Assembly: GCA_049642065.1 (NCBI GenBank)
Contig: JBAROK010000092.1
Location: forward strand, 17,613-81,612
Length of the DNA: 64,000 bases
Direction: 5' to 3'
Source of the DNA: Candidatus Omnitrophota bacterium
GTDB taxonomy: Bacteria; Omnitrophota; Gorgyraeia; Tantalellales; Tantalellaceae
Below are positions 11,391-61,945 of the stretch, one piece after another (positions within the stretch are counted from its first letter, which is position 1; every line of letters begins with the position of its first letter). The notes beneath the pieces were generated by a model. The model did not search any database and was not told where the DNA came from. It saw nothing but the letters and a program-made list of their open reading frames with translations. The translations under genes were made by a program, and so were the position numbers.

Positions 11391-11406
11391 AATAGAAAGG
11401 TTCTGG

Positions 11407-12255: not shown

Positions 12256-12312
12256 TCAGCTATTGAAAAAATAGCTATTATAAGGTAATATATTGTCAAA
12301 AAGGAGAGGCTG

Positions 12313-12822: not shown

Positions 12823-12854
12823 TTTAAGCTATTAAGCTTTGGAATGATCATGCA

Positions 12855-13060
12855 GGTAACCGCAAGGTTTTAATTGGGAAGTCCGTGAAAGTCGGACACG
12901 GTCCCGCCGCTGTTACCGGAGACGAAAGCTTCAAGCCAGGTCACTGCCTTTAAGAGGTGGGAAGGCCGAAGCGAGTAGGTAGACCCGGGAGTCAGAAGAC
13001 CTACCTGTGTGTTAAGAAGTATCCTGAATGCCCGAGGAGGCGAGAGGTACAGAATATAAG
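12855..13060 (+). promoter_or_regulatory. cobalamin (B12) riboswitch aptamer
   Basis: Conserved core ttaattgggaagtccgtgaaagtcggacacggtcccgccgctgt, GGGAAGGC element and B12-box-like gagtcagaagacctacc. Located in the 5' leader of a TonB-dependent receptor gene. Confidence 0.85.
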
Positions 13061-34711: not shown

Positions 34712-34784
34712 CGAGTGTAGTACAATGGCAGTACACCAGCTTCCCAAGCTGGCTACGGGGGTTCGATTCCCCTCACTCGCTCCA
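34711..34784 (+). tRNA. tRNA-Gly (anticodon CCC), CCA-encoded
   Basis: Cloverleaf read by eye: acceptor GCGAGTG/CACTCGC, D-stem GTAC, anticodon stem CCAGC/GCTGG with loop TTCCCAA, T-arm GGGGG-TTCGATT-CCCCT, discriminator T, then CCA. Confidence 0.85.
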
Positions 34785-45554: not shown

Positions 45555-47189
45555 ATGTTCATAGAACCAGTTTTTGGTAAAAAATTTTTCGGACGAGAAG
45601 AAGTCCTTGCAACTCTTCATAAGAGGGTTACGGCATTAAAGGGAGGGTATAGGCAGAACCTTGCACTTACCGGACCGATGCTTGCGGGCAAATCTTCCGT
45701 TCTGCGTCATTTCCTGATGAACGTCAAGGATTCCGACGTGATACCTCTCTATATCGAGATGGGGGAAGAAGACTTCAATAATTTCTGCACCCGTTTCATG
45801 GCGTCTCTTCTTTACAGGTACCTGAAATCAAAAGGGGAAAAAGCCGAAGGAGATTTCAAAGAGCTTAAAAAGGTGTGCCGGCCACAGATACCTCAGACCA
45901 TGAGTTGCGTTGATCAAGTATGCAAAGCGCTTAAACAGCGCAAAGATAACGACGCGTATGAAACTCTTCTCGAAATTACTTCTACTTTCAAGACAGAGAC
46001 CGGGAAGAGCTGCATAGTTATTCTGGATGAGTTTCATAACCTATCGAATTTTTCGCTTAAAAGGCCCTTTCAGACCTTTGGAAAGTTCATAATGGTTCAG
46101 AAGAGCACTATGTACATAGTGTCCAGTTCCCAGAAATCTCTTTTGAAAGAGATCCTTTCCAATAAACTATCGCTTCTTTTTGGGAATTTCGAAGTGATAG
46201 AGGTTAATGGATTTGATAACCAGACGGCCCGTTCTTTCATCTCGGACAAGATTGAGAATGCCGATTCTTGTGAGAATATACGCAACTATCTTATACAGAT
46301 TTCCCAAGGCAGTCCATTTTACCTGGAAACTTTGGCAGGCAGGTTCTCGGAACTTGTAAAAAATTGCCGCGAAAAAAGTGACGCGAAAGAATGTCTCTTG
46401 GATGCCTTTGCAGATCTTCTTTATGAATCCAGTGGGCTACTTAACCAGTATTTCGAGAACAGTGTGAACTTTTTTCTGGAGAAGAGGTCCCGGAAAAAGT
46501 TCATACCCATACTTATTTCGTTGGCTAGAGGTAACAGCACGATAAAGGCTATACAGGAGGACTTGGGCAAGACGGATAAAGATCTGGGGCAAAAGCTCCA
46601 GAAACTCCAGGATATGGATCTGGTGCATAATAGCGGTATTTTCTACAAGATAGCCGACAAACTTTTTGAGTACTGGCTTAAGTGCGTTTACAGCATGAAA
46701 ACCCGCACTATGATAGACGACATGGATATCAAGTATCTGGAGTTTAAGCGCATGTTCGAGGAAGATTACCAGAAATATTGTGAGTTCAACTCCAAGAGCA
46801 TCGTAGACGTTATTTCGGATCTATTCAGCAGTTTCGGCGGCGAAAAGGTACAGATCAGCATGAACGACCGGAAAATGCCTCGGTTTGAGAAAGTAGAAGT
46901 TAGCCCATTCGGTGAGAATGTGTTCCAAATAACAGGCAGCGTGAAGAACAAGAAATGGATCTGTCACGTTAAAACAGGCGATATCACCGAAGAATACGAC
47001 ATCTGTAATCTTTGGGATCTTAAGTCCCAAAAAGATAAGGATAAGATAGCAAGAAAGATCTTCATTCCGCTTAAAGGCATAGAACAAAATGCGTTCCTTC
47101 TGGCCAAAGAACAGAATATCTGGGTTTGGGACACGCAGCAACTTAATAAGATACTCCGTTTGTTCGGAAAATTCGAGCTGGTATTATGA
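45555..47189 (+). CDS. AAA ATPase of the PF01637/Orc1-like (archaeal-ATPase) type with C-terminal nuclease-like (DUF234-like) region
   Basis: N-terminal FFGREEVL signature. Walker A GPMLAGKSS, Walker B CIVILDEFH. 544 aa. C-terminal ~150 aa (..EYDICNLWDLKSQKDK..) is unassigned. Confidence 0.65.
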   Translation: MFIEPVFGKKFFGREEVLATLHKRVTALKGGYRQNLALTGPMLAGKSSVLRHFLMNVKDSDVIPLYIEMGEEDFNNFCTRFMASLLYRYLKSKGEKAEGDFKELKKVCRPQIPQTMSCVDQVCKALKQRKDNDAYETLLEITSTFKTETGKSCIVILDEFHNLSNFSLKRPFQTFGKFIMVQKSTMYIVSSSQKSLLKEILSNKLSLLFGNFEVIEVNGFDNQTARSFISDKIENADSCENIRNYLIQISQGSPFYLETLAGRFSELVKNCREKSDAKECLLDAFADLLYESSGLLNQYFENSVNFFLEKRSRKKFIPILISLARGNSTIKAIQEDLGKTDKDLGQKLQKLQDMDLVHNSGIFYKIADKLFEYWLKCVYSMKTRTMIDDMDIKYLEFKRMFEEDYQKYCEFNSKSIVDVISDLFSSFGGEKVQISMNDRKMPRFEKVEVSPFGENVFQITGSVKNKKWICHVKTGDITEEYDICNLWDLKSQKDKDKIARKIFIPLKGIEQNAFLLAKEQNIWVWDTQQLNKILRLFGKFELVL

Positions 47190-49869: not shown

Positions 49870-51372
49870 ATGGAAAAGTTGTATTTGAAATTAAAAGAGA
49901 ACTGGGATCTTAGGCAGGAGATAGCAGCTTTCAGCAAACATCTCAAGAACCCCGTATGGACTATCCTGCCGGTTTTTTCAGGTGGCACGAACGAGCTAAA
50001 AAATACAGATCTTGGAAAAAGCGTTAAAGCCGCCGTAGCAGACGCTAAAAAAATTCCGGACGAGCTTACTAATATACTTAAGTCCATTAAAAAGGCGAAA
50101 AATGATAAAGTGCTGGAACGGTTCCGGTATGGCAGGATGCATGGGCTGTGCTACCCTTTGATGGCAGATGAAGAGGTGATAGGGTTTATTATCCTGGCGG
50201 GACTTAAAAAGCCCATGTCCGCGGATCTTGAAGGGATCTTTACGGCATTTACCGATGCTGTTATACGGGAAAGCCAGAAAGAGATCGAACTTGAAGAGAT
50301 AAACAAGACTATAAGGCCCAGGGCCGTTGCTCTTTCAACGGTTCATACCGTTCACAGGCTTATGTCCTCGACGCTGGACATAAACGAGCTTCTGCCGAGG
50401 ATAGCCAGGCTTTCGTTACAGGTGATACGGTCCAACCGCTGTTCGATAAAGCTGGTGGACAAGACCCGGAAAGTGCTTCTTCCTGTTGCTACCATTGACC
50501 TCAGGAAAGAGAAGACTAAGCTTAAAAAAGTGATTATTGGTCGTTACGCCCCAGGTAAAGCCGTTAAGGAAGGGATGTCTGTGCGTTCGACACGGTACCT
50601 GGCCACTCCCATGATCGATGAAGACGTCATCGGCGCAATAACGCTCTATGATAAGATCGACGGCAAGGAATTTACCCCTTTTGATGAAGAGATCATGAAG
50701 ACTCTTGGTGAGCAGGCGGCGATCGCTATCACGAACGCACAGCTTTTCCGCGAGCAGGAAGAACTTACGCTGAGCAGCATTCGGTGTATAGCTCATCTTA
50801 TGGAATCCCGGACGCATGGCACGCATAGAGCGGAAGGCTCGTTCCTCAAACTGATAAACATTATCGGCCGGAAATATAATATGAACGAGCTGGAGATCAA
50901 GATGCTTCAGTATGCCGCTATGCTTCACGATGCCGGGCAGATAAGTATTCCAGAAAAAGTGCTTATGAAACGAGGGGAACTTACGGGTAAAGAGCTGGAC
51001 ATCATAAAGAAACATCCTTCCAGGGGAGCTAATATCTTGGCAAAGTTTAAGCCACTTAAACCCATAGTTCCGATAATCCTGTATCATCATGAGAATTATG
51101 ACGGGACGGGGTACCCCAAGGGTTTGAAGGGTGAAGAGATACCTTTATCCGCACGGATACTTGCAGTTGTAAGCGCTTTTGAAGCGATGATAACAAAAAA
51201 ACCTTATCGCAGAGCTCTTTCGATAGGTTCGGCAGTGAGGGAAGTGAAAAGAAACTCAGGCACACAGTTCGATCCTGGTATCGTAGAAGTTTTTGGCGAT
51301 GCCATAAAAAGAAAAGACGTGAAAAAGCTCCTGGAAAAAGAGCTTGGGAAAACGCAATGGAAACAAGATTAA
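49870..51372 (+). CDS. GAF-GAF-HD-GYP domain protein (predicted c-di-GMP phosphodiesterase / sensor)
   Basis: Two GAF-like N-terminal domains. HD-GYP signatures LHDAGQ and HHENYDGTGYP. Confidence 0.8.
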   Translation: MEKLYLKLKENWDLRQEIAAFSKHLKNPVWTILPVFSGGTNELKNTDLGKSVKAAVADAKKIPDELTNILKSIKKAKNDKVLERFRYGRMHGLCYPLMADEEVIGFIILAGLKKPMSADLEGIFTAFTDAVIRESQKEIELEEINKTIRPRAVALSTVHTVHRLMSSTLDINELLPRIARLSLQVIRSNRCSIKLVDKTRKVLLPVATIDLRKEKTKLKKVIIGRYAPGKAVKEGMSVRSTRYLATPMIDEDVIGAITLYDKIDGKEFTPFDEEIMKTLGEQAAIAITNAQLFREQEELTLSSIRCIAHLMESRTHGTHRAEGSFLKLINIIGRKYNMNELEIKMLQYAAMLHDAGQISIPEKVLMKRGELTGKELDIIKKHPSRGANILAKFKPLKPIVPIILYHHENYDGTGYPKGLKGEEIPLSARILAVVSAFEAMITKKPYRRALSIGSAVREVKRNSGTQFDPGIVEVFGDAIKRKDVKKLLEKELGKTQWKQD

Positions 51373-51629
51373 AAAATCTATTAGATAAGAAGCTGTACAG
51401 GGATATCCTTACCTTTTTCTACAAGAACCAGACGAGTGTTGATAGTGTCGGTGGAATATCGACCTGGGTCGGTGACAGCCGCGAAAACGTACACTCTGCT
51501 CTTGATAAACTTGTCAAAATGGGAGTCCTTAACGAGGACAGCCAAGGTGTTACTAAAGGATATTGCTACACGCGTGACGAAGAGATAATGGACATCATTG
51601 AGGAATTGATGCAGGATGCCAAGAGTTAG
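51357..51629 (+). CDS. hypothetical small protein (possible wHTH), coupled to HD-GYP gene
   Basis: 90 aa. Start overlaps the HD-GYP gene end by 16 nt. Confidence 0.4.
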   Translation: METRLKNLLDKKLYRDILTFFYKNQTSVDSVGGISTWVGDSRENVHSALDKLVKMGVLNEDSQGVTKGYCYTRDEEIMDIIEELMQDAKS

Positions 51630-52164
51630 TATTTCAAAAGGATCCATATCTTTTCGCGTGCTTATCGTCCCAACCATTCTTATAGTCCTCGGAACGATTA
51701 TTTTCTTGAACATTAACGGTCTTGCCACGTTCTGTGTAAATAAGCTGACCGATTACACGTTGACGTACGATAAATGGTCAGGCAACTTATTGACAAACAG
51801 TGAAATACATAACATAAGGGTGGAATCGGGGAAGGACAAACTCCTTATCAGCGCAAAAGACGTATTCCTTGATTTCAGGTTAAAGGATTCTCTCAAGGAC
51901 ATGAATATAGTGGTGGGGTGCAAGTTGCAGGATGTTGCCTTCGGGTCCATAACTGAAACTAGCAAAGAAGTGTCTGAAGAGGAAGGGGACATAGGAGATT
52001 CGCTTTCAGGCGCGCTGACAGATCCTTTCGGTCCAGGACAAAGATATAGCAAAATTACCTTCATATTACTGCTTGAGTGGGACAAAGTAACGCTATATGA
52101 TTTCCAGGCGTATTCAAAGGAAATCGAGATCAAGGCAAAAGAATTCACATCTACCCTGAGATAA
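51616..52164 (+). CDS. hypothetical membrane-anchored protein
   Basis: 182 aa with an N-terminal TM helix. Start overlaps the previous ORF by 14 nt. Confidence 0.4.
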   Translation: MPRVSISKGSISFRVLIVPTILIVLGTIIFLNINGLATFCVNKLTDYTLTYDKWSGNLLTNSEIHNIRVESGKDKLLISAKDVFLDFRLKDSLKDMNIVVGCKLQDVAFGSITETSKEVSEEEGDIGDSLSGALTDPFGPGQRYSKITFILLLEWDKVTLYDFQAYSKEIEIKAKEFTSTLR

Positions 52165-52259
52165 ATCATTTACCTGCCAAAAATACTTGCCCAGAAAGCT
52201 AAAATCAGTATAATACTACTCTTGCTATTTAACAGTAATATGCTAGAATATAAGCCCAA

Positions 52260-52871
52260 ATGACCGATAAAGAGTTTCAAAAGGATTTTTTTGGAGACCG
52301 GAAATACGAAGAGAAAGCAAGAATACCGCTTTTAACTAGGCGGTACCCGGATCGTATTTTCCTGCCTCATCTGAAGATACCGGTTGAATATGCCGTTATT
52401 ATTTCTATTGCTGTATTAGTGCTAGTAATAATCGCGTATGCTGCCGGGGTTGAAAGAGGTAAAAGGGTTGGTTCTGTTACGACGGTAGAGGAAAGTTTTC
52501 AGGCTGAAACTGTTGCGGTAAAGCCCGCCGAGAGTGAAGCTATAGTGAGTGAAGAGGCTGTTGCAGTTACAGAGCCTGAGGAAGCCGTAGTGGAAGAAGC
52601 TCCAAAGCAGGGAACCGTTAAAGAAGTTGTTAAGATACCGGAGGGCCCTGTTGGCAAATATGTGATACAGCTGGCTTCTTTCAAGAATCTGGACTCAGCG
52701 GAAGAGGAAATAGAGAAATTGGAAAAGAACGGTATCCCGGCTGATGTGACCAAAAAGGGAGCCTGGTATCAGGTGTACGCTTCCGGATATACGACCATTG
52801 AAAGCGCTAAAAGAGCGAAAAAGCTACTCAGCGCTGATTACGAAGATTGTTATATAAGACGGTTAAAATAG
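52260..52871 (+). CDS. SPOR-domain protein (peptidoglycan-binding, cell-division type)
   Basis: N-terminal TM segment. C-terminal SPOR domain YVIQLASFKNLDSAEEEIEKLEKNGIPADV...WYQVYASGYTTIESAKRAKKLL. Confidence 0.7.
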   Translation: MTDKEFQKDFFGDRKYEEKARIPLLTRRYPDRIFLPHLKIPVEYAVIISIAVLVLVIIAYAAGVERGKRVGSVTTVEESFQAETVAVKPAESEAIVSEEAVAVTEPEEAVVEEAPKQGTVKEVVKIPEGPVGKYVIQLASFKNLDSAEEEIEKLEKNGIPADVTKKGAWYQVYASGYTTIESAKRAKKLLSADYEDCYIRRLK

Positions 52872-52882
52872 GAGGAATTTAG

Positions 52883-53179
52883 ATGTCACAACATTCAAGT
52901 TTAAAAGGCGGCAAGGGCGAAGGCGTGTTTCGTTCGGTCTTGAAACGTTACGAAAAGATAAAGGAATTGTCCGGAAAGGATAAATGGGACGAGGAGAAAG
53001 ATTCCATTTACGGATTGCCTAAGGTCAGACGTATCAAGTTCAAGGTCAAAAAGGCCAAGGGTCCTGATGAAGAGAAACTGGAAGGCGCAGCACCCGCAGA
53101 AGGCGCAGCATCCGCAGAAGGTGCGGCTGCTAAAAAAGCACCTGCGGCTGGAGCGGGCAAGAAAGACGCTAAAAAATAA
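52883..53179 (+). CDS. small basic protein with Ala/Lys-rich histone-H1-like tail
   Basis: 98 aa. RBS ggagg. C-terminal GAAPAEGAASAEGAAAKKAPAAGAGKKDAKK tail. Confidence 0.45.
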   Translation: MSQHSSLKGGKGEGVFRSVLKRYEKIKELSGKDKWDEEKDSIYGLPKVRRIKFKVKKAKGPDEEKLEGAAPAEGAASAEGAAAKKAPAAGAGKKDAKK

Positions 53180-53191
53180 AGAGGGGTTGGG

Positions 53192-53512
53192 ATGGTATCT
53201 TTTGAAGATTTCAAGAAACTTGATCTTCGTGTTGCTAAGGTAACGGAAGTTAAGGAACATCCTAACGCTGATAAGTTATACGTGCTGCAGATAGATACCG
53301 GATGTGAGACGAAGCAGATAGTTGCGGGTATACGCGCACAATATTCTCCGGATGAGCTGGTCGGTAAAAAGATAATCGTGATCAATAATCTTGAACCGGC
53401 TACCTTAAGAGGGGAAGAATCTAGCGGGATGCTTCTTGCTGCTAATGATGAAGGGAACCCGATTATACTTGTACCCGAGCGGGATGTTCCTGAAGGATCC
53501 CCGGTATCTTAA
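53192..53512 (+). CDS. tRNA-binding domain protein (CsaA/Trbp111-like, OB fold)
   Basis: DLRVAKVTEVKEHPNADKLYVLQIDTG...QIVAGIRAQYSPDELVGKKIIVINNLEPATLRGEESSGMLLAA matches the MetG C-terminal/EMAPII-type domain. Confidence 0.8.
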   Translation: MVSFEDFKKLDLRVAKVTEVKEHPNADKLYVLQIDTGCETKQIVAGIRAQYSPDELVGKKIIVINNLEPATLRGEESSGMLLAANDEGNPIILVPERDVPEGSPVS

Positions 53513-53548
53513 GTGCATAGAACGGAATAAGCAAAATATAAAAGAAGC

Positions 53549-53580
53549 AGAGAGTTAACAATCTCTGCTTCTTTGTTTTT
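53549..53580 (+). terminator. intrinsic terminator
   Basis: Stem AAGAAGCAGAGA/TCTCTGCTTCTT with loop GTTAACAA, then TGTTTTT. Confidence 0.75.
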
Positions 53581-53595
53581 AAAACGGGAGATGTA

Positions 53596-54258
53596 ATGGC
53601 TAAAGGTGTTACCACCGAACAAATGGCTGAAATTGACAGGAAAGCCCAAGAAGAGTACGGTATTGCCCAAGTGGATCTAATGGAAAATGCCGGCCGGTCA
53701 GTAGCAGAAGAAATCCTTTCCGATTTTGGATCACTCAGAGAGGAGAAAGTAGCTGTTCTCTGTGGCAAGGGTAATAACGGTGGTGACGGGTTTGTCATAG
53801 CCAGACATCTTGCGGAGAAGGAACCGCAGTGCCTAGGAGTGTATATCACTGATCCCGAAGGCGTCAGGAAGGGATCAGCGCTGGACAACCTACAGCTAAT
53901 ACGCGGAAAGAAGATCGATATACGGTCTATGAACGAATTTGTTCAAGAAGAGGAAAGTTTTACTTTAGTCATCGATGCTATCTTCGGTACTGGGTTCAAG
54001 GGTGAATTGACTGAAGAACTGAAGCGTATAGCTAAAAAGGTCACTTCTTCATCCGCAAGGGTATACGCTGTTGATATCCCTTCCGGGCTGAACTCTACGA
54101 CAGGCAAGGCCTCGGAAAGCTCTTTTAAGGCGGATAAGACCGTAACTTTTGGGCTGCCAAAAACCGGTTTCTATCTGGAGGATGGGCCCGCGTTATGTGG
54201 CCAGATCATAGTCAAAGATATCGGGTTCCCCAAGGTTCTTCTTGAAGAGTACCTGTGA
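53596..54258 (+). CDS. NAD(P)H-hydrate epimerase (YjeF N-terminal domain)
   Basis: VAVLCGKGNNGGDGFVIARHL motif. 220 aa. Confidence 0.8.
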   Translation: MAKGVTTEQMAEIDRKAQEEYGIAQVDLMENAGRSVAEEILSDFGSLREEKVAVLCGKGNNGGDGFVIARHLAEKEPQCLGVYITDPEGVRKGSALDNLQLIRGKKIDIRSMNEFVQEEESFTLVIDAIFGTGFKGELTEELKRIAKKVTSSSARVYAVDIPSGLNSTTGKASESSFKADKTVTFGLPKTGFYLEDGPALCGQIIVKDIGFPKVLLEEYL

Positions 54259-54300
54259 TTTTTGCCTTTTCCAGTTTTATATGTTATATTTGACGGTATT

Positions 54301-55392
54301 ATGAAGAGAATAAAACTTAATTTAGGAGAAAAAAGCTACAATATTCTTATCGGATCGGGGAGTATCACGGAACTATCCAATCTGGTAAAATCCATGAAGT
54401 TTACTGGCCCTGTGGTCGTAGTGACCGATAATACGGTAAAGACCAAGACAGCCCGGCGGATCGCACCGGTACTCAAGAAACTTAAGAATGAGCTTATCCA
54501 GGTATCGGTACCGGCTTCAGAGAGGTCTAAATCCGTATCAGTATTCCGTGATGCGATCCAGAGAATAAGCAAAAAGACAAAGACGCACCGGCCGCTGATC
54601 GTAGCTCTTGGCGGAGGTGTTGTAGGCGACCTGGCAGGGTTCATCGCAGCTACTTACAGAAGAGGCGTACCTCTTATACAGGTGCCGACGACTTTACTGG
54701 CTCAGGTAGATTCTTCCATTGGGGGTAAAGTCGGTATTGACCTGCCGCAAGCCAAGAACCTCGTAGGTGCTTTTTACCAGCCCAAAGCCGTGCTCATGGA
54801 CCCGGATTTTCTGGCGTCACTTCCCAAAAGACAGGTTCGTAATGGTATGGCCGAGATAATAAAATACGGGATTATAAGCAGCCCAAGCCTTTTTGAATTT
54901 CTTGAGAACAATATGCAGGCTATTATTTCTCTGAAAAGAAAACCGCTTGAAAAGGTCATCTCAGAATGTGCTTCCATAAAAGCGCGTGTTGTTGAGAAAG
55001 ACGAATATGACTGTAAGGATGTTAGGATAGCGCTTAATTTTGGGCATACTATGGGTCATGCTATTGAAGCAGCTTCAGAATATTCTAAACTTTACAATCA
55101 TGGTGAATCCATCTCTGTCGGTATGCTGCTTGCTAGTGAGATCGCGGTGATGCTGGAGATGCTCAAGGAAAAGGATCTTAACCAGATCAAAGCCCTGATC
55201 AAGAAAGCAGGTCTACCGGTTAGCGTGAAAGGTGTTCCGATCGGAGAAATCCTAAAGTCTTTCAAATACGATAAGAAATTTACCAAAGGCGGGAACCGGT
55301 TTGTCCTCCCGCGCAAGATAGGTACCGTAGCAGTGGTCGAGGATATACCCGACCTATTGGTAAAGACCGTCCTGAAAAAATATGTCAGCTAA
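54301..55392 (+). CDS. aroB: 3-dehydroquinate synthase
   Basis: GGGVVGDLAGFIAATYRRGVPLIQVPTTLLAQVDSSIGGKVGIDL. The ATG at 54301 is preferred over 54262. Confidence 0.85.
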   Translation: MKRIKLNLGEKSYNILIGSGSITELSNLVKSMKFTGPVVVVTDNTVKTKTARRIAPVLKKLKNELIQVSVPASERSKSVSVFRDAIQRISKKTKTHRPLIVALGGGVVGDLAGFIAATYRRGVPLIQVPTTLLAQVDSSIGGKVGIDLPQAKNLVGAFYQPKAVLMDPDFLASLPKRQVRNGMAEIIKYGIISSPSLFEFLENNMQAIISLKRKPLEKVISECASIKARVVEKDEYDCKDVRIALNFGHTMGHAIEAASEYSKLYNHGESISVGMLLASEIAVMLEMLKEKDLNQIKALIKKAGLPVSVKGVPIGEILKSFKYDKKFTKGGNRFVLPRKIGTVAVVEDIPDLLVKTVLKKYVS

Positions 55393-55792
55393 GAAAATCA
55401 CTACCATAAGCGTCAAGTCTTCCAGAAAAGACCAGATAGTAGATATTACCGGTGAGGTGTCGGACATCGTACGGCAAAGCGGTGTCACTTCTGGCGTGTG
55501 CATAGTTTACGTGCCGCATACGACAGCGGGCGTTACTATAAACGAGAATGCCGATCCTGACGTTAAATCGGATTTTCTTATGGGTTTAAGCGAAATCGTT
55601 CCCTCGAATCTTGGGTACAGCCACGCTGAAGGCAATTCTCCCGCACATATTAAAGCGTCTTTGACGGGTATCTCCGCGAACATGATGGTTGATAACGGTA
55701 CGCTTGTTCTGGGTACATGGCAGGGGATATATTTCTGTGAATATGACGGTCCCAGATCGAGAAAGGTTCATGTAAAAGTAATAGAAGGATAA
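55382..55792 (+). CDS. YjbQ/UPF0047-family protein (secondary thiamin-phosphate synthase-like), copy 1
   Basis: 136 aa. VYVPHTTAGVTINENADPDV...HIKASL motif pattern of UPF0047. Confidence 0.7.
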   Translation: MSAKKITTISVKSSRKDQIVDITGEVSDIVRQSGVTSGVCIVYVPHTTAGVTINENADPDVKSDFLMGLSEIVPSNLGYSHAEGNSPAHIKASLTGISANMMVDNGTLVLGTWQGIYFCEYDGPRSRKVHVKVIEG

Positions 55793-55795
55793 AAC

Positions 55796-56191
55796 ATGAG
55801 AGAACACACAATAGAACACAGGGTAACTTATAAAGAGACCGACCAGATGAGGGTTGTTTATTATTCAAATTATCTGATCTGGTTCGAGATGGTTCGGACC
55901 GAATACTTCAGGGCCAAGGGGTTGGTCTATAAAGAGCTCGAGGATAATGAAAAGATATTTCTCCCTGTCACAGAAGCTCAGTGCGTTTATAAGGCGCCGG
56001 TAAAATACGACGACCTTATCGAGATAAAGGCAACTCTCAGTGAAATAGGCAAATCCAGGATCACTTTCGAATACGAGGTCATCAAAGACGGTAACGTTAC
56101 CACTACAGGCTATACGAAACATGTCTTTGTAAACGGAACGGGAAGAGCTATCCCTGTACCGGATAGAATCAAAGAATATCTCACCAAATAA
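55796..56191 (+). CDS. acyl-CoA thioesterase (4HBT / YbgC-like hotdog fold)
   Basis: 131 aa. YSNYLIWFEMVRTEYF hotdog-fold N-terminal pattern. Confidence 0.7.
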   Translation: MREHTIEHRVTYKETDQMRVVYYSNYLIWFEMVRTEYFRAKGLVYKELEDNEKIFLPVTEAQCVYKAPVKYDDLIEIKATLSEIGKSRITFEYEVIKDGNVTTTGYTKHVFVNGTGRAIPVPDRIKEYLTK

Positions 56192-56203
56192 ATTAAATTC
56201 TGA

Positions 56204-56860
56204 TCAGCGCATGCGTATTTCGTAATCTGTATCATGAGATGATACTATTACAGTGGACGGGTTTATCTTGCGGATCGTATAACCGGTCACGACGTCACCT
56301 TTGGTTACCAGAGCTCCGTTAATAATCGCTTGGGGATTTGTAGGCGAATACATGATACCGCTTACGATTGGAAGGTCCGCGGGGGCGATAGTTCCGTACG
56401 TTGTCTGGGTTTTCGGAACCGGCGCAGAAGGTTGTTTGACCGTTTCGGGTTCCAGGATAGCGGCGGGAACGGTCTCTTTAGGTGCCGGCATAGGCTTGTA
56501 AACAGCAGGAGCGGGTCTGGCTTGCTTAACTTGTTTCTCTGAAGCCGTTAGAAGGGGACGGATAAGCAAGACGGAACCGATAAGCACGATACACAAGAGG
56601 ACTATGCTGCCAGCTAAGATATGCGGGAACAGAGCCTTTTTATCCGGAGCTGCTTTAGCAGGTTTCGCTGCTAAAGGTGCAGCTATTTGCGGTTCGGTTT
56701 CGTTCGTCGGAGGGACAACTTCCTGCAGTTCTTGAGCTTTTTCTGGTGGCGCAAATTTGGCAGCCTCTTCAGCCCGAACTCTTTTCAGCTCTTCCGCTCT
56801 TCTCAATCTTACGGCGCGTTCTTTTTGCGCTTTTTGTAATGCTTTGGCTATAATGCTCAT
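56204..56860 (-). CDS. GspB/ExeB-like protein (Pro-rich linker, TM, C-terminal T2SSB-type domain)
   Basis: N-terminus MSIIAKALQKAQKERA is typical of GspB. Central TM segment, Pro/Ala-rich region, and C-terminal SGIMYSPTNPQAIINGALVTKGDVVTGYTIRKI. Confidence 0.6.
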   Translation of the reverse strand: MSIIAKALQKAQKERAVRLRRAEELKRVRAEEAAKFAPPEKAQELQEVVPPTNETEPQIAAPLAAKPAKAAPDKKALFPHILAGSIVLLCIVLIGSVLLIRPLLTASEKQVKQARPAPAVYKPMPAPKETVPAAILEPETVKQPSAPVPKTQTTYGTIAPADLPIVSGIMYSPTNPQAIINGALVTKGDVVTGYTIRKINPSTVIVSSHDTDYEIRMR

Positions 56861-57678
56861 ACGGTGATACTATATTGTCCTTCTATTTCTTCAATACTTT
56901 TTTCGACTATTTCAGGTTCAATAAGACGGGTTTCCCGCACAAATCCCATTAGAAGCGCCTTATCGCATAAGAGGTTAATCAGGCGTGGGATACCGTCTGA
57001 ATACGAATAGATAAGGTCACATGATTCGGGATAAAAGTTAATTATCTGTGAAGCCCCTGCGATTGCAAGACGATGGTGTATGTATCCATCCAGTTCGTTT
57101 CTTTCAAGCGCCCTTACGTGGAACCTTACGCTTATTCGCTGGCGAAGCTGTACCAGGGCGGGGGAGTTCAGTTTATCTCGCAGCTCCGGCTGGCCTACAA
57201 GTATTATCTGCAGAAGTTTTTCTTTGTCGGTTTCCAGGTTCGACAGCATACGGATAGTTTCGAGAGTGGATTTTCTCAGGTTCTGAGCCTCGTCGATTAT
57301 AAGAACCGTGTTATTGCCTCGTGAAAGCTGAGCCAGAAGGAATTCGTTCAGTTGTTTCAGGAAAGCGACTTTGTTGCGCCTTTCAGGTGTTATACCAAAA
57401 TCCGTGACAATAGCTTCAAGAAGCTGTGTTTCAGGCAAACTTGAATTGAAAATAAGGGAGGTCTTAGTATGTTCGTCCAGTTGCTTGATCAGCGCGCGGC
57501 ATAGGGTTGTTTTTCCCGCACCGATCTCGCCGGTTATTTCAATGAACCCTTTCCGGGCATGAATCCCATACAACAGGTGATCTAAAGCTTCTTTATGGGT
57601 ATGACTAAGATATAGAAAATCAGGATCACTGGTGACGTTAAAAGGGTTTTCCTTAAGACCATAAAAATCGAGATACAT
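56857..57678 (-). CDS. ExeA/GspA-like AAA ATPase (AAA_22 type; PEP-CTERM-locus / MshM-like)
   Basis: N-terminal FYGLKENPF, Walker A GEIGAGKTT, Walker B LIIDEAQ. Stop overlaps the gspB-like start. Confidence 0.7.
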   Translation of the reverse strand: MYLDFYGLKENPFNVTSDPDFLYLSHTHKEALDHLLYGIHARKGFIEITGEIGAGKTTLCRALIKQLDEHTKTSLIFNSSLPETQLLEAIVTDFGITPERRNKVAFLKQLNEFLLAQLSRGNNTVLIIDEAQNLRKSTLETIRMLSNLETDKEKLLQIILVGQPELRDKLNSPALVQLRQRISVRFHVRALERNELDGYIHHRLAIAGASQIINFYPESCDLIYSYSDGIPRLINLLCDKALLMGFVRETRLIEPEIVEKSIEEIEGQYSITV

Positions 57679-57794
57679 TAAGCGGACGACCTCCTTTTAT
57701 ATAGTATTATACCGCGTAAAAAATTACTGTAAAGCTAAAACTGACTGTGGGTTAATATTTACCTATGAGTTTCTTTGACAAGTGCCGAATTCTC

Positions 57795-57823
57795 TTGAAA
57801 TTGTAAAAATACTAAGGTAATAT
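57795..57823 (+). promoter_or_regulatory. sigma70-like promoter for PilZ gene in divergent intergenic region
   Basis: TTGAAA, 17 nt, TAATAT, ending 9 nt before the ATG at 57833. Confidence 0.4.
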
Positions 57824-57832
57824 TGAAGTGTT

Positions 57833-58201
57833 ATGATGTGGGACGGAATAAACCAGAGAAGATTTCCCCGGGTAAGTTACAGGTGCCTTATACTTGTTTC
57901 TAAAGACGGTCGGGAAGAGGTCATAGAGACCTTCACCGAGAATATCGGAGCGGGAGGGATTTGTGTTGTCCTGGACAGGGAGTTCAAACTATTTGAGAAC
58001 GTGGCAATGGAGATCTTTCTGGGGGAGGAAAAGGAGCCCATTAATTGCCAGGGGACGATCGTATGGGTCGTGAAACGGCATCCAACGACTGATGCAGAGA
58101 AAGTCGAGTACGATACTGGTGTTGAGTTTAGGGATATTTCGGACGAGGACATAAAAAAGGTGACCAAGCTCGTCGAAGATATATTAAAGGCCAAAACTTG
58201 A
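57833..58201 (+). CDS. single-domain PilZ protein (c-di-GMP receptor-like), copy 1
   Basis: QRRFPRV (RxxxR) and ENIGAGGICVV (D/NxSxxG-like) PilZ motifs. 122 aa. Confidence 0.65.
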   Translation: MMWDGINQRRFPRVSYRCLILVSKDGREEVIETFTENIGAGGICVVLDREFKLFENVAMEIFLGEEKEPINCQGTIVWVVKRHPTTDAEKVEYDTGVEFRDISDEDIKKVTKLVEDILKAKT

Positions 58202-58285
58202 CATCCTAAAAGGCGCATGATATACTTCAGGTAATTTTATTAGAGAGTTTAAAAATGATATATTAAGAAGGAGGTGAAGGAGAAA

Positions 58286-58612
58286 ATGAAGGCGATTAAA
58301 ACTTTAATGATTTGCTTAGTCATCATAGCTATGGTAGGAGTGGCTACTCAGTGTTATGCACAGGATCCTGCGAAGAAACTTGGCAGAGGTTTGGCCAATA
58401 TCCTAACAGGTTGGGTAGAGCTTCCTAAGAACATCTACGATACGAGTGTTGAAGAAAACGTACTTTCCGGCCTCACTATGGGTCTGGCAAAAGGTGTTGG
58501 TATGACGATAGTCAGAACGGGTGCCGGTGTTTATGAAACGGTTACTTTCCCGTTTCCGATACCCGAAGATTATCAGCCGGTTCTTGAGCCGGAATTCGTG
58601 TTCAGTGAATAA
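58286..58612 (+). CDS. small secreted protein resembling the exosortase-system-associated TIGR04073 family
   Basis: Signal peptide. KLGRGLANILTGWVELPKNI...G..KG...T..RTGAGVYETVTFPFP pattern as recalled for TIGR04073. RBS aaggagg. Confidence 0.5.
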   Translation: MKAIKTLMICLVIIAMVGVATQCYAQDPAKKLGRGLANILTGWVELPKNIYDTSVEENVLSGLTMGLAKGVGMTIVRTGAGVYETVTFPFPIPEDYQPVLEPEFVFSE

Positions 58613-58636
58613 TTCAACTATGGGTTGATTGCATTA

Positions 58637-58675
58637 CAGAAAGGGAGCGATTTCACATCGTTCCCTTTCTGTTTT
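58637..58675 (+). terminator. intrinsic terminator
   Basis: 13-bp stem GAAAGGGAGCGAT/ATCGTTCCCTTTC (one G-U pair) with loop TTCAC, then TGTTTTT. Confidence 0.8.
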
Positions 58676-58702
58676 TATAGGTTAATACCAAGAGGGGGCT
58701 AG

Positions 58703-59059
58703 ATGACAGGCGAGAAAAGAAGGTATATGCGGTTTAACGTGCTGCTTGATGCTATATGTCGTAAGAACGGTAACCAGAAGAAATTAAAGGTAAATAACTT
58801 CAGTAAAGAAGGGGTCGGCATACTTAGCAAGGAATCATTCTCCGAAGGGGAGAATGTTGAAATAGAGTTGATGATACCCGGCGATAATGTCCCTGTGTTG
58901 CTTCAGGGAGAGATAGCTTGGTCAAGTGATCCGATAGTGGATAATATTCATCATAAAAGCGGAATGAAGTTTCAGAAGGTCAGTAACGAGGACAGAAGCA
59001 GGATACTTGAATACATTTATCATAAGTGGATGATGCCTGCCAGTGCTGACGCAAAATAA
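58703..59059 (+). CDS. single-domain PilZ protein, copy 2
   Basis: KRRYMRFNV and NFSKEGVGI motifs. 118 aa. Confidence 0.6.
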   Translation: MTGEKRRYMRFNVLLDAICRKNGNQKKLKVNNFSKEGVGILSKESFSEGENVEIELMIPGDNVPVLLQGEIAWSSDPIVDNIHHKSGMKFQKVSNEDRSRILEYIYHKWMMPASADAK

Positions 59060-59076
59060 ATGAAAGTGGAGGAGAA

Positions 59077-59583
59077 ATGAGCCCGAATGAAGAACAGAAC
59101 GAACAGAAGGCACCTGAAGAAGCAGGTAAAGAGGAACAGCCTGTAGAAGAAAAAGCACCTGCTGAAGAAACACCTGCAGCAGAAGAGAAAAAAGAAGAAG
59201 CTCCTGTTGAAGAAGCACCGGCAGCTGAAGAGAAGAAAGAAGAAGCACCCGTTGAAGAAGCACCGGCAGCTGAAGAGAAGAAAGAAGAAGCTCCTGCTGA
59301 AGAAGCACCGGCAGCAGAAGAGAAAAAAGAAGAAGCGCCTGCTAAGGAAGCACCGGCAGCTGAAGAGGTGAAGAAAGGTCCTTCGCGGCAGCCTAAGGCG
59401 AAAAAACCGGCTCAACCGACAGAATGCGCCGGATGCGCAAAGGCTCTGCGAAAGAAACTTTGGTATTACAGAAATGATGCCTTCTATTGCACGAAAAAGT
59501 GTTATACGAGGAAGGTAGAAGAAGAACGCAAGAAAGCTGAAGAAGAGGCGAAAAAAGCGGCCGAAGAAGGCGCAAAGGAATAG
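59077..59583 (+). CDS. acidic tandem-repeat protein with C-terminal TRASH/YHS-like zinc ribbon
   Basis: Four or more copies of the 15-aa repeat EEKKEEAPVEEAPAA. C-terminal C-x2-C-x17-C-x3-C (ECAGCAK...FYCTKKCY). RBS ggagg. Confidence 0.6.
   Translation: MSPNEEQNEQKAPEEAGKEEQPVEEKAPAEETPAAEEKKEEAPVEEAPAAEEKKEEAPVEEAPAAEEKKEEAPAEEAPAAEEKKEEAPAKEAPAAEEVKKGPSRQPKAKKPAQPTECAGCAKALRKKLWYYRNDAFYCTKKCYTRKVEEERKKAEEEAKKAAEEGAKE
59150..59360 (+). repeat. 45-bp coding tandem repeat (about 4.5 copies)
   Basis: The unit gaagagaagaaagaagaagc(a/t)cc(c/t)gttgaagaagcaccggcagct is repeated head-to-tail inside the CDS. Confidence 0.7.
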
Positions 59584-59611
59584 AACCCAAGCGCTAAACA
59601 TAGATACTCCA

Positions 59612-59663
59612 AACAAACCCAAAGTTCAAAAGCATAAACAGTTTTTTGGATTTTGGGTTTGTT
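59612..59663 (+). terminator. long inverted repeat / terminator-like hairpin
   Basis: AACAAACCCAAA ... TTTGGGTTTGTT 12-bp arms around a 28-nt loop that contains a T6 run. Confidence 0.45.
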
Positions 59664-59678
59664 AATTATAGTTTAATG

Positions 59679-60161
59679 AAAATGTTACCTAAAATTCTAG
59701 TAAGCAGTTGCCTGATAGGCAAAAAGTGCGCTTATGACGGGGAGGCAAGGACTTCAACGGCCGTTAAAGAGTGCTGCGAAACCTACGGATACATCTCCAT
59801 TTGTCCCGAGATGGAGGGAGGGCTTGGATGCCCGCGGGAACGGCACGAGATCGTAGGCGGCTCCGGTAGTGACGTGCTGGATGGCCGTGTCCGTGTAATA
59901 TCGATATCCGGTAAGGATATGACAGACAATTTCTTCAGCGGAGCAGAAAGGACGCTTAAAACGGCAAAAGCAAATGCGATAAAAGTTGCCGTTCTGAAAT
60001 CCCGAAGTCCCTCCTGCGGCAAGAATATGATCCATACTGGCAACTTTGACGGTGAGGCACGTGAAGGCTGCGGAGTGACTACAGCGCTTCTTGTAAGAAA
60101 CGGGATAAAAGTGTTCACGGAAAATGAAATCGATGAGATCAAACGTGAATTAAAGCCCTAG
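59679..60161 (+). CDS. DUF523-family protein (TudS-like Cys-rich small enzyme)
   Basis: ILVSSCLIGKKCAYDG...ISICPEMEGGLGCPRE matches the DUF523 Cys pattern. The 59679 start avoids the hairpin. Confidence 0.6.
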   Translation, partial: KMLPKILVSSCLIGKKCAYDGEARTSTAVKECCETYGYISICPEMEGGLGCPRERHEIVGGSGSDVLDGRVRVISISGKDMTDNFFSGAERTLKTAKANAIKVAVLKSRSPSCGKNMIHTGNFDGEAREGCGVTTALLVRNGIKVFTENEIDEIKRELKP

Positions 60162-60225
60162 TTTCTTGTCAAACTCAAAACCTTTGCGTTGAAAAATACT
60201 CCTTCCGTGTTATAATAATCTTGTT

Positions 60226-60573
60226 ATGAGCGAAGATTGCCTTTTCTGTAGAATAGTACAAAAGGAGATACCGGCGGATATCGTTTTTGAAGACGACGAT
60301 ATGATCGCTTTTAAGGACATCGATCCAAAAGCACCGGTCCATATCCTTTTCATACCGAAAAAGCATTTTGCTAATCTGAACGACATGTCCGATGAGGACG
60401 CCTGCGTTCTGGGAAGGATTCTTTCAAAGGTGAAGGATATCGCTGCGGAGAATGATGTGGCAAAAAGCGGATATCGTGTTGTGATAAACTGTAACGCGAA
60501 TGCCGGACAAGAAGTGTTCCATCTTCACGTTCATCTTCTTGGAGGTAGGAGTTTTGCCTGGCCGCCGGGATGA
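60226..60573 (+). CDS. HIT-family (histidine triad) hydrolase
   Basis: HLHVHLLGG histidine triad. N-terminal CLFCRI. Confidence 0.85.
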   Translation: MSEDCLFCRIVQKEIPADIVFEDDDMIAFKDIDPKAPVHILFIPKKHFANLNDMSDEDACVLGRILSKVKDIAAENDVAKSGYRVVINCNANAGQEVFHLHVHLLGGRSFAWPPG

Positions 60574-60619
60574 TCCGGGCATGTGAGATAAACAAACAGA
60601 ACTTATCTTGGAGGAAACA

Positions 60620-60982
60620 ATGGCACCAAAGACAGAGAGAAGGAAATACCCGCGAGTTAAAGACAAAGATATTTCTATTAAACTATCTGGGGAAGGGTTT
60701 GATGCGCTAACTCAGAGCCTTGACGTAAGTGCCTCGGGAGTGTACTGCAAGGTCACAGAGAAGATACCGCTAATGACGAGGGTTCAGGTGCTTCTTACGA
60801 TTCCGGCAAAGAACAACTCGACTCGTTCTATTAATATGAACATTGATGGGGTAGTAGTTAGAGAACATCCCGTCATGAAAGACGGGCGGGTGGAACATTA
60901 CGATGTGGCGATATTCTTCAGTTCTCTTATGCCCAAGGAACGTGATCTTTTGGTCAAGTATATCGAATCTAAAACAAAGTAA
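60620..60982 (+). CDS. single-domain PilZ protein, copy 3
   Basis: ERRKYPRV and SLDVSASGVYCKV motifs. RBS ggagg 5 nt upstream of the ATG at 60620. Confidence 0.6.
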   Translation: MAPKTERRKYPRVKDKDISIKLSGEGFDALTQSLDVSASGVYCKVTEKIPLMTRVQVLLTIPAKNNSTRSINMNIDGVVVREHPVMKDGRVEHYDVAIFFSSLMPKERDLLVKYIESKTK

Positions 60983-60990
60983 TCTGCACG

Positions 60991-61407
60991 ATGGTTATCA
61001 CAAAATATATATCAGTCGAAACCCAGGGTAACACGGATATTATTAATATAACTCCGTACTGCCAGGATATTGTGGACTCTACGAACTTGAAGGACGGGAT
61101 CATGACGGTGTTCAACCCCGGGTCCACCGGTAGCCTTACGACCATAGAATACGAACCAAACCTGGTAAAAGACTTCCAAGAAGCACTTGAAGTAATTGCT
61201 CCTTCGGACAAGACCTATGAACATGCCAAGACCTGGCATGATGATAACGGTTCCGCTCATATACGCGCCTCACTTATGGGACCTTCCATAACCGTTCCTT
61301 TTGCCAACAATGACCTGACATTAGGTACATGGCAGCAGATCGTGTTCTGCGATTTTGATACCCGTCCGCGCAGACGAGAACTGATTGTTCAGGTAATGGG
61401 GGAATGA
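60991..61407 (+). CDS. YjbQ/UPF0047-family protein, copy 2
   Basis: Paralog of 55382-55792 (ITKYISVETQ...FNPGSTGSLTTIEYEPNL...HIRASL). Confidence 0.7.
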   Translation: MVITKYISVETQGNTDIINITPYCQDIVDSTNLKDGIMTVFNPGSTGSLTTIEYEPNLVKDFQEALEVIAPSDKTYEHAKTWHDDNGSAHIRASLMGPSITVPFANNDLTLGTWQQIVFCDFDTRPRRRELIVQVMGE

Positions 61408-61414
61408 TCTGTAC

Positions 61415-61945
61415 ATGGGAGTCCTCATGAACCAAAATCCGGTCAAATTAGTGGCCAGCATCATTTTTAAAGAAGACGCTTCTCTTGCCGGTGCCGAGAA
61501 AAAACTTATACAAAAATATGGACCTCTAACCTCACTTGAGCGAATTTTACCGTTCGACTTTACGGATTACTATGAGGAAGAGTTCGGCAAGCCCCTGAAA
61601 CGCAAGCTTCTATGCTTTGAAAAACCTGTTGATATGGAAAAAATAGCGGATATAAAGTTAACAACCAACAGAATAGAAGATAGTTTTCGCGAGGACGATA
61701 AAAGAACGGTCAATATAGACCCTGGATACATAACCGAGGCTAAACTGGTCTTGCTTACCACCAAAGATTATAACCACAGGGTTTATCTCGGCAGGCGGAT
61801 ATTCGCAGAATCCACTTTATATTTTCAGGAGGGCACCTTTAAACCGTGGCCATGGACATATCCCGATTACGGGTCGCAGCCGCTTATATCATATTTCAAT
61901 GAAGTGCGTGCCTTATATGCCGAGGGCTTAAAAAAGAGCAAGTAG
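61415..61945 (+). CDS. conserved hypothetical protein (DUF4416-like)
   Basis: 176 aa soluble protein. No catalytic motif identified. Confidence 0.4.
   Translation: MGVLMNQNPVKLVASIIFKEDASLAGAEKKLIQKYGPLTSLERILPFDFTDYYEEEFGKPLKRKLLCFEKPVDMEKIADIKLTTNRIEDSFREDDKRTVNIDPGYITEAKLVLLTTKDYNHRVYLGRRIFAESTLYFQEGTFKPWPWTYPDYGSQPLISYFNEVRALYAEGLKKSK

Follow-up and report, generated by a model that had tools for sequence, protein, structure and literature searches.

In a 64,000-nt stretch of DNA from Omnitrophota (the window), we examined a block of genes from position 49870 to about 62580 that encodes a predicted GAF-HD-GYP phosphodiesterase, three small PilZ proteins, an ATPase of the ExeA/GspA/MshM type with a GspB-like partner, and a small secreted protein of family TIGR04073. 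Our results point, with a probability of roughly 0.4, to a phylum-conserved cyclic di-GMP (c-di-GMP) signalling island, in which several transcription units are interleaved with housekeeping genes. The identity of the individual genes is secure, and no component with a family assignment falls outside the described families. The novelty lies in an arrangement, specific to the phylum and conserved in it, that places an orphan ATPase pair beside a multi-PilZ cluster, a TIGR04073 gene, and an operon of HD-GYP and winged-helix genes; we found no description of it in the searchable literature. Omnitrophota are uncultured, ultra-small, and probably host-dependent bacteria that presumably use their secretion and pilus machinery for attachment or predation. 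If the cluster is functional, it supplies concrete candidates for c-di-GMP control of this machinery in the phylum; if it is inherited synteny only, the block is a commonplace collection of known families.

The block was analyzed with gene lists and profile hidden Markov model (HMM) scans. The Pfam and NCBIfam scans covered about 36 window proteins. As cut-offs we used the Pfam gathering scores (HD_5, 27.2; PilZ, 22.5; T2SSB, 28.4) and the NCBIfam cut-offs (TIGR03015, 324.5; TIGR04073, 50). For comparison, one genome per species was searched with the window ATPase, yielding 80 related loci (L numbers) with up to 10 kb of readable flank, onto which 26 window proteins were mapped by tblastn. The best ATPase relatives came from metagenome-assembled genomes of Candidatus Omnitrophota, at no more than 81% identity (L001, 81%). 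Genes identical to those of the window are recorded under assembly GCA_049642105.1.

The block was colinear through Omnitrophota, down to about 52% ATPase identity. From its upstream edge, the order was STAND-like ATPase, YfcE-like protein, dGTPase, HD-GYP, 90-aa protein, SPOR-domain protein, small basic protein, tRNA-binding protein, dehydroquinate synthase, thioesterase, the GspB-like protein and the ATPase (both on the opposite strand, about 6 kb downstream of the HD-GYP gene), PilZ1, TIGR04073, PilZ2, zinc-ribbon protein, HIT protein, PilZ3, DUF4416, and a 189-aa protein. On the PilZ side of the ATPase, an orthologue-built HMM picked out 147 PilZ open reading frames (ORFs), compared with 4 on the opposite side (80 loci, about 617 kb on each side). 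Thus, the PilZ cluster is real, localised, and conserved. Deep lineages retained a compact core of ATPase pair, PilZ, zinc ribbon, PilZ3, and DUF4416, and one lineage carried three consecutive PilZ genes with neither TIGR04073 nor zinc ribbon. An HD-GYP orthologue with an intact motif lay inside the block in 24 related loci, and GGDEF proteins were encoded on the PilZ side of the ATPase in 4 further loci.

A second sample, independent of the ATPase-based set, consisted of 80 metagenome loci with TIGR04073 orthologues. The scan that produced it was aimed at TIGR04073 members of other phyla and returned Omnitrophota only; as all of the loci hold 70–95% identical Omnitrophota orthologues, they serve solely as an independent sample of synteny. 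A PilZ gene lay directly upstream of TIGR04073 in 55 of 64 loci, while the gene directly downstream encoded PilZ in 44 of 59 and the zinc ribbon in 12 more. The divergent ATPase was less than 1 kb from TIGR04073 in 28 of 33. The PilZ and TIGR04073 genes both pass their family models (Table 1) and are co-conserved in related genomes, two points on which an earlier annotation of this DNA from its letters alone (the sequence-only reading) had staked its proposal of a hitherto undescribed regulon for envelope or secretion functions under c-di-GMP control.

Features of the block under study, in order of position (bits are HMM scores).
Feature	Position	Strand	Basis
GAF-HD-GYP phosphodiesterase (predicted), 500 aa	49870..51372	+	HD_5 and GAF HMMs, motif, PDB relative
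90-aa predicted winged-helix protein	51357..51629	+	AlphaFold2 model and Foldseek
182-aa protein, N-terminal hydrophobic segment	51616..52164	+	no family
GspB-like bitopic partner, 218 aa	56204..56860	-	N-terminal motif, transmembrane segment, beta domain
ExeA/GspA/MshM-type AAA_22 ATPase, 273 aa	56857..57678	-	AAA_22, TIGR03015
Promoter-like site of the ATPase/GspB-like pair, TTTACA-16-TATAAT	57706..57733	-	11/12 consensus matches
PilZ1, 122 aa, RRFPR + NIGAGG	57833..58201	+	PilZ 54.1 bits
TIGR04073 extended -10 promoter, near-consensus TTGACA-17-TG-TATACT	58198..58226	+	sequence
TIGR04073-family small secreted protein, 108 aa	58286..58612	+	107.6 bits vs 50
TIGR04073 intrinsic terminator, 16-bp stem + T run	58636..58672	+	sequence
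PilZ2, 118 aa, RRYMR + NFSKEG	58703..59059	+	PilZ 47.6 bits
Acidic repeat protein, C-terminal CxxC-x17-CxxxC zinc ribbon (FCS/TRASH-like)	59077..59583	+	repeat, Cys motif
PilZ3, 120 aa, RKYPR + DVSASG	60620..60982	+	PilZ 31.1 bits
DUF4416 protein	61415..61945	+	DUF4416 194.1 bits
189-aa protein, N-terminal transmembrane segment	62011..62580	+	conserved in ~20 related loci
Alpha/beta-hydrolase membrane protein, N-terminal part of 610 aa	62664..64000 (window end)	+	homology

Several components named in the sequence-only reading were borne out: the HD-GYP protein with its HHENYDGTGYP motif, three stand-alone PilZ proteins, a divergently transcribed ExeA-like ATPase, a small secreted protein of family TIGR04073, and an acidic repeat protein with a zinc ribbon. 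All three PilZ proteins exceeded the gathering score of Pfam PilZ (PF07238). They are distinct, anciently separated orthogroups and canonical single-domain, receptor-type predicted c-di-GMP binders. The two expected motifs, RxxxR and [DN]x[S/G]xxG, were kept in 45 of 45 orthologues of PilZ1, 33 of 36 of PilZ2, and 50 of 50 of PilZ3; thus, the earlier description of RxxxR with a D/NxSxxG-like motif stood, except that PilZ1 carries NxGxxG rather than NxSxxG. In the PDB, PilZ1, which is divergent from the ATPase gene, weakly matched the YpfA/MotI PilZ domain (5vx6). PilZ3 most likely starts at the ATG at 60620, behind GGAGGA, as had been proposed.

In length (about 120 aa), in motifs (RxxxR and [DN]xSxxG), and in having no other domain, these proteins resemble single-domain PilZ adaptors such as MotI/YpfA of B. 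subtilis. MapZ and DgrA are further adaptor proteins of this kind. Unlike MotI/YpfA-type adaptors, however, three to four anciently diverged paralogues stand side by side across the phylum and adjoin an ExeA/GspB-type pair, and one of them, PilZ1 in the window, has the NxGxxG variant. Small pilZ genes near loci resembling the type II secretion system (T2SS) have been described for giant-gene regions of Omnitrophota, with the T2SS-like cluster upstream and the small pilZ genes downstream (West-Roberts et al., bioRxiv 10.1101/2023.11.21.568195). The block shares with those regions the phylum and the presence of small PilZ proteins beside secretion-type genes. It differs in that the window holds no giant gene (the largest ORF is 1,047 aa) and no gspD/E/F, and in that the neighbour of the PilZ genes is an ExeA/GspB-type pair, which is absent from the passages of the preprint (10.1101/2023.11.21.568195) found by term search.

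The HD-GYP protein is a predicted c-di-GMP-type phosphodiesterase. It scored 139.2 bits against HD_5 (PF13487) over residues 313–470, and its LHDAGQ and HHENYDGTGYP motifs were intact in an alignment to PmGH of Persephonella marina (4mcw), a GAF-like/HD-GYP c-di-GMP phosphodiesterase that was its best PDB relative (E = 1.4e-35). The alignment covers the C-terminal part of the GAF domain and continues across the HD-GYP domain, in which both HD and HHExxDGTGYP are conserved. In contrast to PmGH, the window enzyme carries about 160 additional residues at its N-terminus, which form a conserved domain, and has a coupled winged-helix gene. A single GAF domain was detected (residues 172–289, 39 bits). 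Since residues 1–165 matched no Pfam or NCBIfam model, and since hhalign comparison of the N-terminus with the protein's own GAF domain gave a probability of 0.6%, we rejected the second GAF domain of the sequence-only reading, whose "GAF-GAF" architecture is unconfirmed. In seven deep Omnitrophota loci (L055, L056, L058, and L068–L071), the HD-GYP proteins are 352–355 aa long and lack the N-terminal domain of about 150–160 aa. On a complete chromosome (CP070655.1; L046), an HD-GYP-like gene (11388–12872, 34% identity) lies convergent to and directly after the GspB-like gene, and the divergent neighbour of the ATPase is DUF4416, not PilZ.

Two small genes follow, the first overlapping the end of the HD-GYP gene by 16 nt and the second overlapping the first by 14 nt, which agrees with the earlier suggestion that all three are translationally coupled. 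The first encodes a 90-aa protein that matched no Pfam or NCBIfam family above cut-off (best, DUF7342, 20.7 bits against 31.6). Its best AlphaFold2 (AF2) model had a predicted local distance difference test score (pLDDT) of 82.2 and a predicted template modelling score (pTM) of 0.75, with the other four models at 45–68. When this model was compared with the PDB using Foldseek, CzrA (6cdb) was the best match by TM-score (0.75/0.72; root-mean-square deviation 2.4 Å; E about 3e-3), with further matches to SmtB, SqrR, and MarR-family repressors. With moderate confidence, the protein is predicted to be an ArsR/SmtB- or MarR-like winged helix-turn-helix protein. It follows HD-GYP in 12 related loci, and a word-index search returned only six close homologues. 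The second gene encodes a protein with no Pfam match and only a sub-threshold 17-bit match to the TamB N-terminus, and it is poorly conserved, being recognisable in two to three related loci. In other lineages a UvrD-like helicase, recognised by sequence motif, occupies its position (a 3.1-kb gene in L008–L013). We had considered that the small gene might be the remnant of a large TamB/AsmA-like gene, a possibility that we rejected because the large gene found there is this helicase.

The ATPase scored 100.5 bits against AAA_22 and 327.5 bits against TIGR03015. It is a short form, with no transmembrane segment and no PG_binding_1 match. The partner gene overlaps the ATPase gene by 4 nt, and its product has the N-terminus MSIIxxALxKAQ, a transmembrane segment, and a C-terminal beta domain like those of GspB and the GspC homology region (HR). 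The sequence-only reading had called it GspB-like and had named T2SSB as a model to check. The window protein fell below the T2SSB (PF16537) gathering score at 23.0 bits, although 24 of 38 orthologues matched T2SSB at E ≤ 0.01 (best E = 2.8e-8; CdsD_C matched in 16 and T2SSC in 5). Comparison of the family profile with the PDB gave marginal matches to GspC HR (2lnv, E = 0.023) and GspB (4wfw, E = 0.05). A partner starting with MS(I/L)IxxALKKA directly followed the ATPase in at least 44 of the 80 loci, from several phyla, the count being a lower bound from a motif-based search for starts. A promoter-like site similar to that of the pair, TT[GT]ACA-N16-18-TATAAT, was present at the matching position in 25 of 46 loci. 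The pair is the sole clear minus-strand unit of the stretch examined. In L003 (4659–6089) and L004 (about 10001–11400), it lies inverted between the thioesterase gene and PilZ1, co-directional with all of its neighbours.

The C-terminus of the partner varies between phyla. The small beta domain occurs in Omnitrophota and other genomes of the Planctomycetes-Verrucomicrobia-Chlamydiae (PVC) type. In Desulfobacterota, the partner instead carries tetratricopeptide (TPR) repeats, the ATPase carries PG_binding_1 (as in the homologue from L078), and the pair sits between PilM/N and secretin genes and a gene for a T2SSE ATPase with an MshEN domain. From its gene content, this Desulfobacterota cluster is a putative pilus cluster of the mannose-sensitive haemagglutinin (MSHA) type with MshM and MshN equivalents, its order being PilM/N, secretin, ATPase, TPR partner (with the N-terminus MSxIIxALKKAQ), and MshEN-T2SSE ATPase. 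In the MSHA operon of V. cholerae, which encodes the MshL secretin, the MshM ATPase, the TPR protein MshN, and MshE with its MshEN domain, the ATPase is of the same family as that of the window. The window pair differs from MSHA in being orphaned from pilus and secretin genes and in having a partner with a GspB-like beta domain, not TPR repeats; moreover, in place of an MshEN domain, the predicted c-di-GMP receptors encoded nearby are PilZ proteins that stand alone.

The succession of an AAA_22 ATPase and a bitopic partner also recalls Aeromonas ExeA/ExeB and enterobacterial GspA/GspB, which function in secretin assembly for type II secretion, and the C-terminal domain of the partner shows a tentative family-level likeness to T2SSB and GspC-HR profiles. 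In contrast to ExeA and GspA, the window ATPase is a short cytoplasmic form without transmembrane segment and PG_binding_1. In contrast to GspA/GspB, the T2SSB score of the window partner is below threshold, there is no gspC-O nearby, and a BLASTP comparison of the window pair with GspA and GspB of E. coli K-12 gave no significant match, although these sequences are too divergent for that comparison to be informative. We conclude that the pair is better read as an orphan module of the MshM/ExeA-GspB type.

No other gene of the block is as well conserved as the TIGR04073 gene, which separates PilZ1 from PilZ2; its product has 96% identity to the L001 counterpart (compared to 81% for the ATPase) and a nearly invariant mature part. 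Translation likely starts at the ATG at 58286, behind the strong ribosome-binding site AAGGAGG; the longest ORF begins at a GTG at 58274, and the recorded gene call starts at the ATG, not at the GTG. Since the protein carries a signal peptide, it is probably secreted, and it has no conserved lipobox Cys. The promoter, TTGACA-N17-TGnTATACT, was kept in 24 of 26 orthologous loci, and a strong hairpin with a T run lay 3′ of the gene in 25 of 26, with a stem whose sequence differs by lineage. Having its own conserved promoter and terminator, TIGR04073 is therefore a monocistronic unit inserted between PilZ1 and PilZ2. The near-consensus promoter, the strong terminator, and the near-invariant mature protein suggest that its expression is among the highest of any envelope protein in these organisms. 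An AF2 model built on 37 close homologues was unusable (pLDDT 52.1, pTM 0.25). A search with a divergent paralogue recovered three distant members of the family, which had neither PilZ nor exosortase neighbours.

How might these genes work together? In the mechanism that we propose, triggering of the GAF domain or of the N-terminal sensor would cause the HD-GYP enzyme to lower c-di-GMP. The PilZ proteins would sense the resulting level and, as adaptors, pass it on by binding other proteins, with the neighbouring ATPase/GspB-like pair as the most likely target. Through the pair, the signal would reach secretin or pilus machinery, resembling T2SS or type IV pili, that is encoded elsewhere in the genome. 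The MSHA pilus is regulated by c-di-GMP through MshE, and the proposed control would be analogous, the receptor there being the MshEN domain of MshE. In V. cholerae, a c-di-GMP phosphodiesterase mutant has a motility defect that is suppressed by insertions in mshM and mshN (PMC4624765). Judged from gene position alone, functional coupling of the PilZ proteins to the ATPase pair has somewhat less than an even chance of being real. A more elaborate version of the mechanism is unlikely: free-standing PilZ adaptors, with PilZ1 and PilZ3 as the ancient core, would have replaced the MshEN-type input of MSHA-like pili or T2SS and, by docking on the orphan module, would gate secretin assembly or activity in the T2SS/T4P-like apparatus with which these bacteria attach or prey, the HD-GYP and winged-helix proteins would reset the signal, and TIGR04073 would be an abundant periplasmic component of this envelope machinery that is independent of exosortase.

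A number of observations weigh against a c-di-GMP signalling island. HD-GYP enzymes may be specific for 3′3′-cyclic GMP-AMP (3′3′-cGAMP) instead of c-di-GMP, and the second-best PDB relative of the window enzyme, V-cGAP3 (5z7c), is 3′3′-cGAMP-specific. Because Gly takes the place of the canonical Ser in PilZ1, as in most of its orthologues, c-di-GMP binding by this protein is less certain. No diguanylate cyclase was found in the window, in which a motif regex detected no GGDEF and, as EAL-like sequences, only isolated E[AV]LxR pentapeptides. Secretin, PilM, and T2SSE genes were absent within 10 kb in most Omnitrophota loci and were likewise missing from the window. Only in Omnitrophota does the ATPase pair have PilZ genes beside it, and homologues of the ATPase from Kiritimatiellia, Verrucomicrobia, Desulfobacterota, Nitrospirota, Brocadiales, and Hydrogenedentota were found without any neighbour from the block. 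In L003 and L004, the pair alone is inverted at its site, and the PilZ genes are not. Promoter- and terminator-like signals split the block into several transcription units and not one operon. Finally, the genes for dehydroquinate synthase, the SPOR protein, the small basic protein, HIT, and DUF4416 are equally well conserved in the block; since these housekeeping genes keep their order just as well, the synteny perhaps reflects slow rearrangement, not function.

This last point leads to the strongest alternative, conserved synteny without functional coupling, which has a substantial though less than even chance of being correct. The genes would be old neighbours with unrelated targets in genomes that are small, strongly strand-biased, and slow to rearrange. 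The PilZ proteins would serve c-di-GMP signalling in the cell at large, and the ATPase pair would act on a pilus or secretion locus far away. Colinearity across the phylum extends over the whole 17-kb block, with its shikimate, tRNA-binding, HIT, and YjbQ genes, nearly all genes of the window are on one strand, and the separate promoters and terminators, the inversion of the ATPase pair without its neighbours in L003 and L004, and the unrelated neighbours of the distant TIGR04073 members all fit this explanation. It accounts less well for the extreme concentration of PilZ genes on one side of the ATPase (147 versus 4), for the persistence of the cluster through gain and loss of intervening genes, with deep lineages keeping the core only, and for the extra HD-GYP or GGDEF genes at the matching locus in other lineages; in addition, the ATPase family is elsewhere tied to a c-di-GMP-regulated pilus. 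Overall, functional coupling and pure inherited synteny are about equally likely. Of the regulon put forward in the sequence-only reading, the family assignments and the co-conservation therefore stand, while the synteny does not discriminate, the genes form several transcription units, and the link to exosortase is nominal; a c-di-GMP-controlled secretion regulon is plausible but unproven.

Instead of the ATPase pair, the main targets of the PilZ proteins might also be the interleaved envelope proteins (TIGR04073, zinc ribbon, or DUF4416) or, via the winged-helix protein, transcription. The adjacency of TIGR04073 and PilZ, which occurs twice in the source genome and in most metagenome loci, would be explained in this way, as would the coupling of the winged-helix gene to HD-GYP and the persistence in deep lineages of the PilZ3-DUF4416 and PilZ-zinc ribbon adjacencies. 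However, TIGR04073 carries a signal peptide and is secreted, whereas PilZ proteins are cytoplasmic, its gene is a separate monocistronic unit, and six loci (L025, L027, L029, L030, L038, and L045) have three PilZ genes without TIGR04073 or zinc ribbon. We regard such targets as improbable.

The second TIGR04073-PilZ adjacency lies just past the window. On JBAROM010000035.1, a contig of the same genome (L086, 2332–5165), the alpha/beta-hydrolase gene that runs off the window end precedes another TIGR04073-like gene, the second, and then a fourth PilZ gene, so that the adjacency occurs twice in one genome. The two products, of 128 aa and 122 aa, were identified with HMMs built for this analysis (117.9 bits for the TIGR04073-like protein and 104.6 bits for PilZ), and the same order was present in L001, L007, and L016. 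The 610-aa hydrolase itself is 52% identical to a 623-aa protein of L001.

The names TIGR03015 and TIGR04073 both come with exosortase associations, toward which the sequence-only reading had leaned. Among ten orthologues of the ATPase, TIGR03015 scores ranged from 289 to 341 bits and nine were below cut-off; the 81%-identical L001 ATPase scored 316.4 bits, and an MshM-like ATPase in a PilM/secretin/MshE cluster (L061) scored 313.9 bits. As orthologues straddle the cut-off and MshM-like ATPases of pilus clusters score alike, the TIGR03015 label is not discriminating. A crude regex found no PEP-CTERM-like C-terminus in the window or in the 7,302 ORFs of the 80 related loci, and no exosortase or exopolysaccharide (EPS) gene was seen among the roughly 36 window proteins scanned, the roughly 30 upstream ORFs lying outside those scans; nor did an exosortase-type neighbour appear in the flanks of up to 10 kb around related loci. 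Although the two HMM names apply, TIGR03015 marginally and TIGR04073 clearly, the block thus departs from XrtA/PEP-CTERM loci, and the leaning toward such a system was not upheld. That the block is an exosortase/PEP-CTERM-type EPS and protein-sorting system under c-di-GMP control, with an XrtA-associated ATPase and TIGR04073 as a system component, is very unlikely, since against the two family scores and the weak likeness of the downstream alpha/beta hydrolase to exosortase-A-associated hydrolases (a sub-threshold 23.6/19.6 bits compared to 168/203) stand a TIGR03015 score that fails to separate contexts, the lack of the tails and genes looked for above, and the three distant TIGR04073 loci without an exosortase neighbour.

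A full-text search of the literature returned no papers on TIGR04073 or TIGR03015 and nothing relevant on Omnitrophota and exosortase. The names "XrtA/PEP-CTERM system-associated ATPase" and "exosortase system-associated protein" are thus applied to Omnitrophota genes without contextual support. The practical value of the signalling-island reading lies in testable candidates for c-di-GMP control of the envelope machinery of Omnitrophota, together with caution about names derived from exosortase systems.

Among the genes interleaved with the PilZ cluster, the zinc-ribbon gene contains 4.9 copies of a 45-bp repeat. Of 39 orthologues, 37 keep both the Cys motif and the WYYRNG core of its product, within CxxCxKxxxKKxWYYRNGxxYCxKxC, and family HMMs gave only sub-threshold zf-FLZ and LIM matches. 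In deep lineages, the protein is only 55–60 aa long and has no acidic repeats, which are therefore a lineage-specific expansion. DUF4416 follows PilZ3 in 34 related loci, and the 189-aa protein had no Pfam or NCBIfam match.

The housekeeping genes within the block encode a SPOR protein, a TIGR04137 small basic protein, tRNA_bind and YjeF_N proteins, dehydroquinate synthase, two YjbQ paralogues, a thioesterase, a 2-thiouracil desulfurase-like protein, and HIT. The UPF0047/YjbQ paralogues (55382–55792 and 60991–61407, both +) are less than 6 kb apart and flank the ATPase/PilZ cluster, and both positions recur in close relatives. The small basic protein (52883–53179, +; 98 aa; 59.6 bits against a cut-off of 50) belongs to a PVC-type family; its gene is kept in 43 related loci and always comes after that of the SPOR-domain protein. 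In 12 loci, the block has at its upstream edge the STAND-like ATPase, a 544-aa ATPase_2/AAA_16 protein (45555–47189, +) whose gene overlaps the start of the YfcE-type phosphoesterase gene by 4 nt.

Across the window (1–64000), nearly all genes are on the plus strand, and GC skew is positive in each 2-kb bin (0.06–0.23). The larger upstream genes among those scanned are of ordinary metabolism and transport. An Rfam search of the window at the gathering threshold detected no c-di-GMP riboswitch, finding only a cobalamin riboswitch and a tRNA. A tRNA gene (34711–34781, +) occupies the only sizeable intergenic gap of the upstream part. Further upstream, a cobalamin riboswitch (RF00174, 102 bits; 12837–13022, +) lies directly 5′ of a gene for a TonB-dependent receptor (13142–15166, +) with Plug and beta-barrel domains, together a classic arrangement for B12 uptake.

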